From Elusimicrobiota bacterium (lineage in GTDB: Bacteria > Elusimicrobiota > Elusimicrobia > UBA1565 > UBA9628), in assembly GCA_035606075.1 (NCBI GenBank), contig DATNGC010000004.1, positions 16,932-80,931 on the forward strand: 64,000 nt of DNA, given 5' to 3'. The translations under genes were made by a program, and so were the position numbers. Positions 1-55,247 of the stretch are shown piece by piece. How positions within the stretch are numbered: the first letter of the stretch is position 1; every line of letters begins with the position of its first letter. The notes under the pieces are model-generated. The model worked only from the letters and a program-made list of their open reading frames with translations. It was not told the DNA's origin and did not search any database.

Positions 1-112
1 CGCAGGGCCTTGAGCGCCCCGGGGACGCCGGGCAGCACCGAGAGCTGGTCCGGATGGCTGAGGTAGTCGCGCTCCTTCACGAGCACGCCGTCGCGGTCGA
101 GGAAAACGGCTC
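1..112 (-). CDS. HAD-IIIA phosphatase, GmhB-like (D,D-heptose-1,7-bisphosphate phosphatase family); N-terminal fragment running off the window start
   Basis: Reverse-complement translation from GTG at 110-112 reads VKRRAVFLDRDGVLVKERDYLSHPDQLSVLPGVPGALKAL. The FLDRDGV block is HAD motif I as seen in GmhB/HisB-N enzymes. There is an in-frame stop just upstream of the GTG. Confidence 0.5.
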
Positions 113-36718: not shown

Positions 36719-38646
36719 AGGCCTCCGGCGTGAGCGTGCTCGGCCGCCGGTCCCGCGGCGTGGCGGTGCCACAGCTCCAGCATCAGCAGGGCCCAGAGGC
36801 GGTAGCCGTTGTCGCGGCCGCCGGCTTGGTGGGCGTTCCAGAGCTCGCGCAGGCCCTTCTCCGTGAAGTACCCGCGGGCCAGCGCATCCTTCGACAGCAC
36901 GTGATCGGCCCAGTAATCCTTGAGCGGCCCGCGGAACCACGCGCCCAGCGGGATGCCGAAACCCATCTTCTTGCGCGCGAGGATCTCCGGCGGCAGGAGG
37001 TCCTTGAAGGCCTCCTTGAAGATCCATTTGTGGCCGGTCAAGCCCTTGAGCTTCCAGTCGCCGGGCATGCGGTAGGCGAGCTCGACGAACTCGTGGTCGA
37101 GCAGCGGCGAGCGCCCCTCGAGCGAGCAGGCCATCGTGGCCACGTCGACCTTGGCCATGAGGCACTCGGGCAGGTACGTCTTGAAGTCGACGTAGAGCAT
37201 GCGGTTGACGAAGTCCTCGCCCCGGCACGCGTCGAAGGCGCGCGCGAGGTAGTTCTTGGCGCCGCCCACGTCGCCGCCGAGCGCCTTCATGAACTCCGGC
37301 GAGTACAGCGCGGGCTTCTCGTCCTCGGCGAAGTAGCCGATCATCTTGAGATGGCGGCCGGGCAGGTCGTTGAACAAGGCCGAGCGCAGGAAACGCTTGG
37401 TCCGCCAGAGCTTGCCGTGCGGCGCGTCGAACTCGGGCAGGAGCTCGGCGCCGGCCTTGAGCGCGGCGAGCGCGGGCTTGGGCAGAAGGTCCGAGACGCG
37501 CGCGGGCTTCATCGCGAAGTAGCGCACGTAGCCGGCGAAGTTCTCGTCGCCGCCGTCGCCGTTGAGGGCGACGGTGACGAATTTACGCGTCTCACGGGAC
37601 ACGTAGTACGTCGGAAGCGCGGATGCGTCTGCGTAGGGTTCTCCGTAATGCCAGGCCAGTTTGGGAAGCACGTCGGCCATTTGCGGCTTCACGATGAACT
37701 CAGTGTGATCGGTCTTATATCGATCAGCCACCATCTTCGCGAAGTGCGCTTCGGAGAAGCGTTCTTCGTCGAACCCGATCGAGAAAGTCTTCACCGGCTT
37801 CGACGAGAGCCGGCTCATCAAGGCGACGATGATGGAGGAATCGATGCCGCCGGACAGGAAGGCGCCGAGCGGGACGTCCGAGATCATGCGCAGCTTGACC
37901 GATTCGGTGAGCTTCTCGCGCAGCAGCCGCTTGGCTTCCTCGACGTCCGTCGTGACGGGCTCTTGTCCCAGCGGGAGATCCCAATATCTTTCGACGGTCG
38001 TCTTGCCGTTCTCCCACGTCAGAGAATGACCGGGCGGGAGCTTCTTGACCGATTTATAGATCGTGCCGGGCGACGGGATGTACTGCAAGGCCAGATACAC
38101 GTCGACCGCGCGAGGCTCCACATCACGAGGCAGATTCGGGTCGAGCGCGAAGAGACACCGGAGTTCCGATCCGAAGACAAGCGTGCCGCCGGGGCGCTCC
38201 GCGTAGACCAGCGGCTTCTTGCCGACGCGGTCGCGAGCGATGAACAGCCGCTGCTTCTTCTTGTCCCAGATCGCGAAGGCGAACATGCCGCGCAGCTTGC
38301 TCACGCAGGCCGCCCCCATCTCTTGATATAGGGCGAGGATCGCTTCCGTATCGGATTGCGTCTTGAGGCGGTGCCCGCGAGAGAGAAGCTCTTCGCGCAA
38401 GGACTGATAGTTATAGATCTCCCCGTTGAAGACGATCCATAGGCTATCGTCGGCGTAAGATAGCGGCTGATGCCCTGTATTGAGATCGATGATGGCCAAC
38501 CGCCGCATCGCGAGCGCGACGGGACCGTCGATATAGAATCCCTCGTCGTCCGGACCGCGATGGGCGATCAGGTCGTTGGCGTTCTTAAGGCGCGCCCGAT
38601 CGGGCGCCCGGCCCCGGCCCTCGACGACGCCGCAGATGCCGCACAT
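36703..38646 (-). CDS. asnB: Asparagine synthase (glutamine-hydrolysing) family amidotransferase
   Basis: 647 aa. MCGI is the N-terminal nucleophile Cys of the GATase-II domain, and SGGIDSS is the PP-loop of the synthetase domain. Confidence 0.9.
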   Translation of the reverse strand: MCGICGVVEGRGRAPDRARLKNANDLIAHRGPDDEGFYIDGPVALAMRRLAIIDLNTGHQPLSYADDSLWIVFNGEIYNYQSLREELLSRGHRLKTQSDTEAILALYQEMGAACVSKLRGMFAFAIWDKKKQRLFIARDRVGKKPLVYAERPGGTLVFGSELRCLFALDPNLPRDVEPRAVDVYLALQYIPSPGTIYKSVKKLPPGHSLTWENGKTTVERYWDLPLGQEPVTTDVEEAKRLLREKLTESVKLRMISDVPLGAFLSGGIDSSIIVALMSRLSSKPVKTFSIGFDEERFSEAHFAKMVADRYKTDHTEFIVKPQMADVLPKLAWHYGEPYADASALPTYYVSRETRKFVTVALNGDGGDENFAGYVRYFAMKPARVSDLLPKPALAALKAGAELLPEFDAPHGKLWRTKRFLRSALFNDLPGRHLKMIGYFAEDEKPALYSPEFMKALGGDVGGAKNYLARAFDACRGEDFVNRMLYVDFKTYLPECLMAKVDVATMACSLEGRSPLLDHEFVELAYRMPGDWKLKGLTGHKWIFKEAFKDLLPPEILARKKMGFGIPLGAWFRGPLKDYWADHVLSKDALARGYFTEKGLRELWNAHQAGGRDNGYRLWALLMLELWHRHAAGPAAEHAHAGGLCSGS

Positions 38647-38934
38647 GGCTGTTTTATACCAAAAGCAGCGTTGTGGCCGCCCAGATTCGCGGCGCGCGGC
38701 GCCACAGTGGGCATTCTGTCAACTTTTGCATCCAATCCATCCACTGAATCGACATGATTCTGTCAACTTTCCGGTCCAAGTTGACAATATCGAGTGTTGA
38801 ATTATCATTATAAATAAAGCATAAATTTAGACGGCCATGGCCGAAAATTGCCTTGCGGATTTCCAGCAATAGAGCTATAATTTCTGTGTAGCCCGGCCAA
38901 GTCGAATTCCGAAGCTCCTGCTTCGGCCGTAGTC

Positions 38935-53111: not shown

Positions 53112-54257
53112 CTATTCCCAATCCCTGTTGCGCCGCAGGGCCAGGCCGACGGCCACGCCGAAAGCCGGGCGCAGCTCCTCGGGCACCGCCGCGCCCCCGG
53201 AGACGAAGGAGAAAGGATCGAGCACGGTCACCGGGACCTTCAGCTCGCCGGACAGGTGCTTGTCGAGGTTCTTCGCGCGCGCGGTCCCGCCGGAGAGCAC
53301 GATGCGCCCGATCGCCCGGTCCGGGCCCTGCGACAGGTAGAAGTCGACGGAGCGATGGACCTCTCCGACGAGGTCCCGCGCGACCTGGCCGATGGCCTGC
53401 GAGACGCCGAGCGCCTCGCGGTTGCCGTCCGCCAGGGCCTTTTCCTTCTCGGCGGGGTCGACGATGACGCCGTACTGCTTCTTGAGCTCGTCGGCCTTCG
53501 CCGGCTCGCACTGGAACGCCTTGGCGACGGCCTTGGTCATCGTCGCGCCGGAGAGGGAGACGTCGCGCACCACGCGCGTCACGCCGTTCTCGACGATCGA
53601 GAGGTTCGTGACCATGTGGCCCAGGTTCAAATAAAGCGTGGCCGCCGCCCCTTCCTTCGGGTCGCGGATCTTCTCGTGGACGTTCTCGAGCGCGAAGCTG
53701 TCGACGTCCATGATCGCGGGCGTGAAGCCGGCGCCTTGGAGGATATCGATGCGGGCGGTCACGAGCTCCTTCTTGGCCGCGACGAGCACGGTCTCCATCT
53801 TCTTCTGCCCGTCCTCGACGATCTCGCTCAGGATGTGGAAGCCGAGCTGGACCTCGTTGATGTCGAAAGGGATGAACGGCTCGGCCTCGGTGGCCAGCGT
53901 GGCCTGGAGCTCGGTCTTGGTCAGGCGCGGGAACTTGACGTAGCGCACGATGACGGCGTTGCCGGACAGGGACGTCGCCGCGTCGCGGACGCTGGCGCCC
54001 TTCTCGACGAGGAAGGCGCGCAGCGCGTTGACCACGGCGGTCTTGCGCTCCTCCGGGGACGCGTCGGCCTTCGCGCCGATCGGGAGATGGCCCCAGGCCT
54101 TGAGCTGCAGCGCCGTCCCCTCCTGCTTGAGGAGGACGACCTTGACCGCGTAGGCGCCGATGTCCACGGCCACGACGTCCCGCGGGCCGAGGAACAGCTC
54201 CCCCAGCCCCTTCAGGGCGCCCAAGCGCGCTTTGACGACGTCCATTTTGATGGCCAT
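53112..54257 (-). CDS. pilM: Type IV pilus assembly ATPase-fold protein PilM (actin/FtsA-like)
   Basis: 381 aa. It has the actin-like ATPase fold blocks VAVDIGAYAVK and DVDSFALEN. Confidence 0.9.
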   Translation of the reverse strand: MAIKMDVVKARLGALKGLGELFLGPRDVVAVDIGAYAVKVVLLKQEGTALQLKAWGHLPIGAKADASPEERKTAVVNALRAFLVEKGASVRDAATSLSGNAVIVRYVKFPRLTKTELQATLATEAEPFIPFDINEVQLGFHILSEIVEDGQKKMETVLVAAKKELVTARIDILQGAGFTPAIMDVDSFALENVHEKIRDPKEGAAATLYLNLGHMVTNLSIVENGVTRVVRDVSLSGATMTKAVAKAFQCEPAKADELKKQYGVIVDPAEKEKALADGNREALGVSQAIGQVARDLVGEVHRSVDFYLSQGPDRAIGRIVLSGGTARAKNLDKHLSGELKVPVTVLDPFSFVSGGAAVPEELRPAFGVAVGLALRRNRDWE

Positions 54258-54270
54258 TTATTCGCCGATT

Positions 54271-54327
54271 AAAAAAGCGCCGCCGCCCCGTCGTTCATCC
54301 CGACGGGTCGGACTCGGCGCTTTTTTT
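54271..54327 (-). terminator. Intrinsic-terminator-like element (A-run, GC-rich two-tier hairpin, T-run) 14 nt upstream of the pilM start codon; bidirectional in form
   Basis: aaaaaa GCGCCG ccgCCCCGTCGttcatcCGACGGGtcggact CGGCGC ttttttt. The outer 6-bp and inner 7-bp stems are perfectly complementary. U/A tracts are otherwise rare in this 70% GC DNA. Confidence 0.55.
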
Positions 54328-54338
54328 GAACTCGGTGA

Positions 54339-54367
54339 TTTATAACAGGTTTGTCCATGGGTGTCAA
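54339..54367 (-). promoter_or_regulatory. Near-consensus sigma70 promoter on the minus strand (TTGACA, 17-nt spacer, TATAAA) firing toward pilM
   Basis: The reverse complement of 54339-54367 reads TTGACA cccatggacaaacctgt TATAAA. The predicted TSS is near 54332. Confidence 0.55.
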
Positions 54368-54432
54368 TACCGGTCCGAAAAACTTCGTTCAAACTTTCCT
54401 GACAAAACCGCGATGAATCTCCGGATCGGGGC

Positions 54433-54485
54433 AAAAAAAAGCGCCGCCGACCCCCGGACAGGCGGGTCGGACTCGGCGTAGGGGG
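54433..54485 (-). terminator. Second copy of the A-run / hairpin terminator-like element (U-tract only on the minus-strand RNA)
   Basis: aaaaaaaa GCGCCG CCGACCC ccggacaggc GGGTCGG act CGGCG. It shares GGGTCGGACTCGGCG and GCGCCGCCG with copy 1. Confidence 0.5.
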
Positions 54486-54486
54486 A

Positions 54487-54515
54487 TTAATAACAGGTTT
54501 AGCCGAGTTTGTCAA
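54487..54515 (-). promoter_or_regulatory. Second near-consensus sigma70 promoter on the minus strand (TTGACA, 17-nt spacer, TATTAA); a duplicate module
   Basis: The reverse complement reads TTGACA aactcggctaaacctgt TATTAA. The spacer end aaacctgt is shared with the promoter at 54339-54367. Confidence 0.5.
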
Positions 54516-54581
54516 GATGTCGACGATGTCATCTTATTGTGACGCCCTCAGAAAAACAGGTTTTTGATATATAATTAAAAA

Positions 54582-55247
54582 ATGAAGTCCGTCCTCTTCG
54601 ACTACGGAGGGACGCTCGATTCCGACGGGACCACCTGGCTCGAGCGCTTTTATCCCATTTATAAGGAAAACGGGATCGTCTCCGACCGCTCGCGCTTCGA
54701 CCGGGCTTTCTACGACTCGGATGACAACCTGCCGGCGCGCTTCGCGCTGGACGGACTCGACCTCGAGCAGACCCTGCGCCTGCAGGTCCGCGGCGTCCTG
54801 GACGCCCTGGCCCCGGAGCGCGCGGACCTGACTCCGAAGATCGCGGGGCGCTTCGCGGAGGACAGCCGGCGGCATTTCCGCGTCCTGAAGCCCGTCCTGG
54901 AGCGGCTGGCCTCCCGTTTCCGCCTCGGCGTCGTCTCCAACTTTTACGGCAACCTCGACGGGATCCTGCGCGCCGAGGGGCTGCGCGGACATTTCGCGGT
55001 CGTCGCCGACTCCGGCGTCCTGGGCGTGGAGAAACCGGATCCGGAGATCTTCCTGCACGCCGCGCGCGCTCTCGACGCCCGCCCCGAGGACTGCGTCATG
55101 GTCGGCGACTCCATCCCGCGCGACATGAAGGGCGCGGCGGCGGCCGGCATGAAGAAAGCGCTCGTCTGCGCCGGGGCCGAGACGCCCGACGCCGGCCAGG
55201 ATTGGACCGTGCGCACCGTCGCCGAGCTCGAGGCGGTCCTCGCGTGA
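54582..55247 (+). CDS. HAD-superfamily hydrolase (phosphatase-like)
   Basis: 221 aa. The N-terminal VLFDYGGTLD is a motif-I-like block and GDSIPRDMKGAAAAGM is motif IV. There is a TATAAT-like -10 element 6 nt before the ATG. Confidence 0.7.
   Translation: MKSVLFDYGGTLDSDGTTWLERFYPIYKENGIVSDRSRFDRAFYDSDDNLPARFALDGLDLEQTLRLQVRGVLDALAPERADLTPKIAGRFAEDSRRHFRVLKPVLERLASRFRLGVVSNFYGNLDGILRAEGLRGHFAVVADSGVLGVEKPDPEIFLHAARALDARPEDCVMVGDSIPRDMKGAAAAGMKKALVCAGAETPDAGQDWTVRTVAELEAVLA

Follow-up and report, generated by a model that had tools for sequence, protein, structure and literature searches.

Two paralogous copies of a conserved promoter-terminator unit in the putative 5′ control region of an Elusimicrobiota pilMNOPQ operon

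Introduction

How is RNA polymerase admitted into the type IV pilus operon pilMNOPQ when each promoter visible ahead of it is followed, almost at once, by a predicted intrinsic terminator? The question is raised by the 324-nt gap between pilM and a divergently transcribed HAD-hydrolase gene in an Elusimicrobiota bacterium, within a 64-kb stretch of DNA (assembly GCA_035606075.1, contig DATNGC010000004.1, positions 16,932 to 80,931 of the forward strand) that was analysed as a whole and is hereafter termed the window. This gap holds two modules, B (distal to pilM) and A (proximal), each consisting of a promoter, a hairpin, and a U-tract. A first-pass annotation of the window had proposed two alternatives for these modules, the production of tiny hairpin RNAs or the gating of transcription into pilMNOPQ, and comparison with related sequences supports the proposal as an either/or. 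Elusimicrobiota are almost entirely uncultured and, to our knowledge, nothing has been reported on the regulation of type IV pili in this phylum.

Herein, we present evidence that the gap is probably the 5′ control region of pilMNOPQ, carrying what appear to be two paralogous copies of a phylum-conserved, promoter-proximal intrinsic terminator unit. The unit is a real regulatory RNA element, not a chance repeat. The reading that we favour, at slightly worse than even odds (roughly 0.45), is that of a factor-dependent attenuator of pilMNOPQ that would also release short hairpin RNAs.

Results

All module features lie on the minus strand and are given in window coordinates. In module A, the −35 hexamer TTGACA (54367..54362), invariant in all 30 aligned copies, is separated by a 17-nt spacer from the extended −10 element TGT TATAAA (54347..54339; box at 54344..54339). 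From a predicted start at ~54332, a short A-rich leader (54332..54321), the sequence of which differs among clades, runs into a hairpin at 54320..54277 that is backed by folding, a covariance model, and covariation; its arm reads GCGCCG, an AGU bulge, CCG, an A, and a 7-bp variable stem closed by a 7-nt loop. The U6 tract of the putative terminator tail follows at 54276..54271. Module B has the same layout, i.e., TTGACA at 54515..54510 (retained in the related loci L120, L077, L078, L113, L028, L008, and L016, with L-numbers herein labelling the pilM loci or contigs of relatives), a 17-nt spacer, an extended −10 element TGT TATTAA (54495..54487; box at 54492..54487), a hairpin CGCCG-AGU-CCGACCC...GGGUCGG-CGGCG (54478..54441), and a U8 tract as predicted terminator tail (54440..54433). 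Here the hairpin is backed by folding, by conservation among copies of the same type (type B, see below, which conserve the 17-nt spacer and, as −10 box, TATTAA or TATCAA), and by a match to the covariance model. The TGT preceding both −10 boxes marks extended −10 (TGn) promoters, which match the sigma-70 consensus at 6/6 positions of the −35 hexamer in both modules and at 5/6 (A) or 4/6 (B) positions of the −10 box. The promoters, two-tier hairpins, and U-tracts of the first-pass annotation are thus confirmed by sequence and folding.

If transcription is taken to start 7 nt past the −10 box, the predicted RNAs are ~47 nt (B) and ~62 nt (A) long. The module B start (approximately 54479) is then flush with the stem, such that the hairpins begin ~1 nt (B) and ~12 nt (A) past the start, instead of the 7–10 nt originally estimated. 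The module A fold, at −40.3 kcal/mol (z = −6.0; none of 200 shuffles as good), is a two-tier structure of GCGCCG/CGGCGC, the AGU bulge, CCG/CGG, and CCCGUCG/CGACGGG. The fold of module B (−24.8 kcal/mol, z = −1.7) is unexceptional by energy alone, yet it is conserved among relatives.

Beyond module A, a 13-nt link (54269..54258) without a Shine-Dalgarno sequence leads from the U-tract to the pilM ATG at 54257. Pfam confirms the earlier assignments of pilM (54257..53112; PF11104, PilM_2, E = 1.3e-53) and of the HAD-hydrolase gene (54582..55247, plus strand), and it also identifies PilN, PilO, and the secretin in the operon behind the terminators, the order of which is pilM-pilN-pilO-(unassigned open reading frame)-pilQ.

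The rarity of the individual parts within the window bears on whether this arrangement could be fortuitous. A census of the whole window for TTGACA-16..18-TATAAT with at least 10 of 12 matches returned five sites, two of which are the promoters of modules A and B. The three others (62689, 34243, and 38781) score 11/12, which corrects the earlier impression that the module promoters are far closer to consensus than anything else in the window. A parallel census for hairpins followed by at least five T returned three strong canonical terminators, of which two are the modules. Rare strong promoters thus stand directly ahead of rare terminators, twice, so the arrangement is not one of chance. The two modules also have exact repeats of 11–19 nt in common; the direct repeats that had been noted between them are exact and above chance (CGGGTCGGACTCGGCG, two occurrences in a repeat search; ATAACAGGTTT, two occurrences vs 0.05 expected; AAAAAAGCGCCGCCG, two occurrences). 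Part of the shared spacer end noted earlier, CCTGTTAT, is not specific to the modules; it recurs in the unrelated promoter at 62689 and thus belongs to the ordinary promoter sequence of this organism. A supposed third, degenerate copy (54553-54563) is not kept in the closest relative, L120, where CCTG has become CGCG, and it is best treated as a chance match.

Conservation upstream of pilM extends across the phylum. An exact look-up of the window PilM sequence gave no record. PilM homologues of 75–95% identity all came from Elusimicrobiota metagenome-assembled genomes, and a scan of a genome collection gave 48 pilM loci. In each of the 36 loci for which PilM is at least 63% identical and upstream sequence is present, pilM is preceded by the promoter-hairpin-U-tract unit, in the form CTTGACA, N9-10, AACCTGTTATAAA/C, a short leader, GCGCCGAGUCCGACC, a variable inner stem and loop, CGGCGC, and U5-8; the 5′ arm of its hairpin is the invariant CGCCGAGUCC. 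The U-tract lies 0–60 nt from pilM in most genomes, and ~165 nt away in L031-L033. A covariance model built from 26 copies recovered 33 of the 36 loci at E ≤ 0.025 (module A at 79.8 bits), with L031-L033 being recognised by pattern. All type A copies, and all copies of the GC-rich clade, retain five or more consecutive T. In more distant relatives (PilM 43–51% identical, at much lower GC), the unit is degenerate, with a hairpin of the form RCGCCGAG-stem-loop-CUCGGCG(Y) at the same place upstream of pilM, the conserved 5′ arm thus spanning a shift in GC from ~35% to ~68%; the hairpin is missing in L040, L045, and L046.

The unit appears to be confined to this position. When 425 kb of sense strand was searched with the covariance model, the only copies beyond the pilM units were module B of the window (E = 1.1e-5) and that of L028, and a second search of 153 kb of metagenome loci found copies at pilM only. 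Over the ~580 kb covered in total, copies occur only upstream of pilM or of the adjacent gene; within this sequence, the finding named in the first-pass annotation as refuting, a generic genome-wide REP-like (repetitive extragenic palindromic) repeat, was hence not obtained. A metagenome-wide scan for the pattern CGCCGAGTCCG-N16-40-CGGCGCTTTT gave 114 stretches, of which 80 were listed. Among those listed, 24 are true hairpin modules with a promoter, 23 of them preceding pilM and the last (L071) lying on a contig that ends 4 nt past the hairpin. The other 56 listed stretches are chance matches in coding sequence, have no hairpin, and were discarded; many resemble a conserved block of aminoacyl-tRNA synthetases, an identity that we consider tentative.

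Is the conserved entity the helix, the sequence, or both? Base pairing was tested, with 500 shuffles and with slid registers, on sequences aligned by MAFFT without reference to any structure. In the true register, 96.9% of cells are paired and 7 of 15 pairs display compensatory changes. No shuffle matched the observed percentage paired, either of two counts of compensatory changes, or the covariation score; for a fifth measure (further pair types), 13 of the 500 shuffles reached the observed value. All slid registers were far worse, at 41–70% paired. The variation falls in the inner stem. Five of the six outer-stem pairs never vary, and this near-invariance makes the outer stem uninformative on pairing either way.

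The 5′ arm is conserved at the level of sequence as well. CGCCGAGT is invariant in 30/30 aligned copies, while the inner stem and loop vary; departures from CGCCGAGTCC are limited to two copies, L028_A and L034, which read TTC. In type B copies, GCCGAGTCC is invariant (8/8) and the hairpin is retained. The copies of L008 and L016 are particularly informative in that the 3′ arm has been altered to pair with GAGUC with the 5′ arm left unchanged, indicating that sequence, and not pairing alone, is under selection. The motif lies at ~+2 from the predicted start in type B, ~+13 in type A, and ~+70 in L025/L026, and always at the hairpin base. The motif therefore tracks the hairpin and not the promoter, which argues for its recognition as RNA. 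The leader itself is variable in sequence between clades, and type B copies have hardly any leader.

The first-pass annotation had described the two modules as tandemly duplicated; they are ancient paralogues and not the product of a recent tandem duplication. Two types can be distinguished: type A, with a leader of ~20 nt and a TATAAA/TATAAC box, and type B, with a leader of ~8 nt and a TATTAA/TATCAA box. These are found singly or jointly in many lineages, and window modules A and B group with the type A and type B copies, respectively, of other genomes. The window arrangement, with HAD on one side of B and A leading into pilM on the other, recurs in L077, L078, L113, and L120, the last of which matches the window at 92% identity over this region. 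In L028, by contrast, the order is B, a gene for a 254-aa (amino-acid) outer-membrane-protein-like product, A, and pilM, such that a gene separates the two modules. This gene (L028 3128-3889, plus strand) lies between HAD and pilM, and the −35 box of the pilM promoter contains its stop codon; the encoded protein has a signal peptide and a β-barrel-like C-terminus, KFGVRFGGGS. A like promoter without a hairpin precedes the gene in L012 (3158-3853), while a pseudogene remnant in L020 (1312-1440) consists of an N-terminal fragment and the 3′ end, and L037 displays a promoter of type B form followed by a 3′ remnant. In L008 and L016, a sole type B unit is fused to pilM.

Traces of this gene may also persist in the window. 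The spacer at 54399..54368 (minus strand) moderately resembles the 3′ end of the gene (58% mean column identity), aligning with the L028 and L012 gene ends (AAGTTYGG..CGTTTCGG..GGTATTGACA) and with the L020, L017, and L037 remnants. The similarity covers the last codons and runs into the type A −35 box. A tblastn search of the window with the gene gave no real match, the resemblance being limited to DNA of the 3′ end. The simplest history, inferred from these arrangements, is most likely an ancestral layout of B, gene, A, and pilM with repeated gene loss, by which the two modules of the window would have come to be juxtaposed.

Several lineage-specific elaborations of the region merit description in their own right. 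Within the ~165 nt between terminator and pilM in L031-L033 there is a conserved stretch, AGTCACAGCGTGTCTTTGGTCACGATG...GTCTAAACTGGAGCTATG, that may hold a second promoter or leader element. In L025 (3860-3905) and L026 (3461-3530), a leader of 70–80 nt carries an additional hairpin, placed after the promoter and ahead of the CGCCGAG hairpin, from which it follows that the leader can be elaborated without loss of the core. In L002, L003, L005, L008, L016, L028, L062, L077, L078, L096, L103, and L113, an AAUG after the U-tract opens a mini-frame of 2–7 codons (e.g., AUG GCU UGA, AUG GGC GAA UGA, or AUG CCU GAA UAG) that ends at or just before the pilM AUG. This clade is the same one in which pilM has no Shine-Dalgarno sequence. 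The window and L120 carry AUC in place of the mini-frame AUG, with the window link reading AUC GGC GAA UAA in apparent parallel. The mini-frame could serve for start-stop or re-initiation, or it could be left over from an earlier pilM start.

Candidate identities for the hairpins within known classes were also considered. No Rfam family matched the region at E ≤ 10 with a consistent structure, and none reached its gathering score anywhere in the window; the hit to raiA-hairpin (17.8 bits vs a threshold of 43.7) is a nearby chance fragment. A CsrA-type GGA loop is present in many but not all type A loops and in no type B loop. A kink-turn was rejected for want of tandem G·A on the opposite strand, a signal recognition particle RNA or tRNA minihelix since the loop and 3′ end do not fit, and a DNA uptake sequence since there are two copies only. 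A leader-loop pseudoknot was rejected for inconsistent complementarity, and inspection of the aligned copies revealed no conserved leader-loop pairing. An 85-aa open reading frame across both modules (54258..54515) was likewise set aside, as its "start" coincides with the −35 box and its frame is disrupted by indels in L120.

Other features of the window

On the other side of the gap, the HAD gene appears to be leaderless or nearly so, with a TATAAT (54570-54575, plus strand; TGATA ahead of it) that ends 6 nt before the ATG at 54582; across L006-L036, ATTATA(C/T), as reverse complement, is found at an equal distance from the HAD start codon. The promoter at 62689..62661 (minus strand) is a near-consensus extended −10 promoter, TTGACA-17-TATTAT, with CCTGTTAT and no hairpin; it lies ~16 nt upstream of a small open reading frame beginning MATKYRGTQDEIRALSALINLMRA, which it would drive directly. 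A low-GC island at 38000-40000 (0.55 vs ~0.69 elsewhere), most pronounced at 38750-38990 (plus strand), contains the promoter TTGACA-16-TATCAT (38781-38808, plus strand) followed by AT-rich, non-coding-looking sequence, and Rfam and tRNA scans gave no match in this island. Between 44000 and 48000, an AT skew of +0.34 at 73–74% GC extends over two very long minus-strand open reading frames (951 and 1119 aa) that closely follow pilQ and whose products may be large and repetitive. A scan of the window for tRNA and transfer-messenger RNA genes found none.

Discussion

The anatomy of the unit, its conservation and covariation, its occurrence solely at pilM in the sequence searched, and the lack of any other visible promoter are direct observations, and they constrain how pilMNOPQ can be expressed. 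No other pilM promoter is visible; the upstream gene is divergent, and in most genomes the gap after the U-tract is too short to accommodate one. In the absence of another promoter, polymerase must pass one terminator (from A) or two (from B) to express the operon. In the attenuator that we favour, a near-consensus, extended −10 sigma-70 promoter would initiate an RNA with a very short leader, immediately followed by the hairpin. Most transcripts would stop at the U-tracts, thus freeing the ~47-nt (B) and ~62-nt (A) hairpin RNAs, and only polymerase that reads through would reach pilM, with the attenuator thereby setting or switching expression of the pilus-assembly genes. Read-through would be controlled by a trans-acting factor, more likely a protein than an RNA, recognising the 5′ arm and bulge of the nascent transcript. 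We infer termination and its modulation from this arrangement, and the existence of a trans factor from two considerations: (i) type B RNA begins at the stem, such that no alternative structure could form in cis, and (ii) the 5′ arm and bulge stay invariant as the remaining helix changes, and their position is tied to the hairpin.

A number of points weigh against this interpretation. Start sites, termination, and read-through are all predicted, and the final T of the −10 box, usually conserved, is missing in both modules (a stricter promoter scan therefore calls neither). No candidate trans factor was identified, with no search aimed at PRD or ANTAR proteins, and no alternative antiterminator pairing was found, such that a constitutive leaky terminator that does no more than tune the level of expression would also fit. 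In the distant loci L041, L042, and L044 the U-tract is weak or absent, and L039 has a second promoter-like site between hairpin and pilM, both of which fit an independent hairpin RNA better; L043 offers at best a weak candidate for a second promoter ahead of pilM. Lastly, module B has been kept after loss of its downstream gene in at least five lineages, which hints that the short RNA is itself functional.

The best-surviving alternative, one that we nonetheless regard as unlikely, takes up this last point: each module would be a free-standing small RNA gene encoding an abundant, trans-acting hairpin RNA of 45–65 nt, most plausibly one that binds or sequesters a protein recognising the CGCCGAGUCC bulged stem, with leak-through into pilM being secondary. 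Each module does possess its own near-consensus promoter and strong terminator; for module B, promoter, hairpin, and U7-9 are intact with no gene following in the window, L120, L077, L078, and L113; the second promoter-like site of L039 (weak in L043) and the weak U-tracts of some distant relatives point the same way; and an invariant sequence within a stable stem suits protein binding over base pairing. However, a purely trans-acting RNA would have no need for the absolute synteny with pilM that is seen across PilM identities of 43–95%, and no copy lies away from pilM in the loci searched. As pilM is without a promoter of its own in most genomes, the hairpin is inevitably in the pilM leader, while the single-stranded leader, the usual seed for base pairing, is not conserved between clades.

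One bolder extension of the favoured attenuator, to which we give a rather low chance, can be envisaged: a phylum-wide riboregulator of type IV pilus assembly, consisting of a minimal terminator that senses, through CGCCGAGUCC in its 5′ arm and bulge, either a small ligand or an RNA-binding antiterminator dedicated to it. The freed 45–65 nt RNAs would titrate the same factor, and the two serial modules would thus form a feedback-controlled gate.

A constitutive 5′ element without any switch, which we consider improbable, would act as a stabiliser of the 5′ end and/or as a leaky terminator of fixed strength that lowers the output of a strong promoter, with the U/A-rich stretch serving as a ribosome landing site for pilM. 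Known 5′ stabilisers such as the ompA leader have a hairpin flush with the 5′ end, and the type B hairpin, flush with its predicted start, has this geometry; the 12–20 nt unpaired 5′ tail of type A, on the other hand, makes for a poor stabiliser. The absence of a Shine-Dalgarno sequence from pilM in the clade of the window, where the gene starts 13–23 nt past the U-tract, the L026 ATG directly after the U-tract, and the lack of any alternative structure found would all be in keeping with such an element. It would require a stable stem only, though, leaving unexplained a 10-nt 5′ arm and bulge that are invariant across the phylum.

We hold it to be quite improbable that conservation acts on DNA, with CGCCGAGTCC as the operator for a DNA-binding regulator or as a GAGTC methylation site and the hairpin merely incidental. 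GAGTC is a known methyltransferase/HinfI-type target, and the conservation is strand-asymmetric and covers bases that are unpaired in the RNA (the AGU bulge). Against this stand the variable distance from the promoter (~+2 to ~+70) of a motif that is always at the 5′ base of the hairpin, the maintenance of the helix by compensatory changes, and the distant relatives, which retain CGCCGAG and its partner CUCGGCG and lose TCC. Finally, a generic repeat (REP-like or a miniature inverted-repeat transposable element, MITE), bidirectional terminator, insulator unlinked to pilM, or chance occurrence is essentially excluded: the 11–19 nt repeats common to both copies and the position of the module A hairpin between A7 and T6, by which it would also terminate plus-strand transcription, are outweighed by the lack of further copies in the window or ~520 kb of related loci, by the location at pilM of the true metagenome copies among the 80 listed, by the missing 5′ A-tract in many relatives (e.g., L018-L023), and by the absence of convergent transcription needing insulation at the locus.

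How does such an element relate to known regulatory RNAs? In other bacteria, the cyclic di-GMP-I (GEMM) riboswitch is associated with pilM, pilO, and pilQ, as well as with pilus-assembly genes in Geobacter (PMC1950547). The present unit would share with GEMM its class of target, the pilMNOPQ assembly platform, and with leader terminators and attenuators at large, GEMM included, the placement of a terminator and U-tract after the sole promoter and ahead of the operon's first gene. The GEMM model from Rfam gave no match in the region or the window, however, and unlike riboswitches the unit has no aptamer, the leader being 1–20 nt plus the terminator itself. It also differs from attenuators in that type B cannot form an alternative antiterminator helix, and in that the conserved sequence is the terminator's own 5′ arm.

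Closer in logic is protein-dependent antitermination at the 5′ arms of terminators, as exemplified by the ribonucleic antiterminator (RAT) sites of BglG/SacY, the two-hairpin sites of ANTAR proteins, and PyrR. In these, the 5′ half of a leader terminator overlaps with an element of specific sequence, as appears to be the case for CGCCGAGUCC. The resemblance is of logic only: in sequence and shape the unit agrees with none of these sites, lacking both a RAT-like 29-mer and paired hexaloop hairpins. In Listeria, the terminated SreA/SreB riboswitch transcripts double as small RNAs, and in both cases a promoter-proximal terminator would yield a short RNA and read-through an mRNA. Here, by contrast, the predicted RNAs are 45–65 nt with a single hairpin, and no trans target is predicted. 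As with REP and MITE repeats, the modules are GC-rich, imperfect, intergenic palindromes that occur more than once; they differ in numbering one or two per locus, at pilM, and in having their own promoter and U-tract. A literature search found no paper on this hairpin element, which is apparently an undescribed family within the familiar class of promoter-proximal terminator leaders and short hairpin RNAs.

Ultimately, the compact 100-bp unit constitutes a candidate for a new cis-regulatory or small-RNA family with members ranging from GC-poor to GC-rich, and it illustrates how an operon may be controlled by a promoter-proximal terminator that leaves no room for an antiterminator. The probable history of gene loss between the two modules further suggests that a leader module can outlive the gene that it once preceded.

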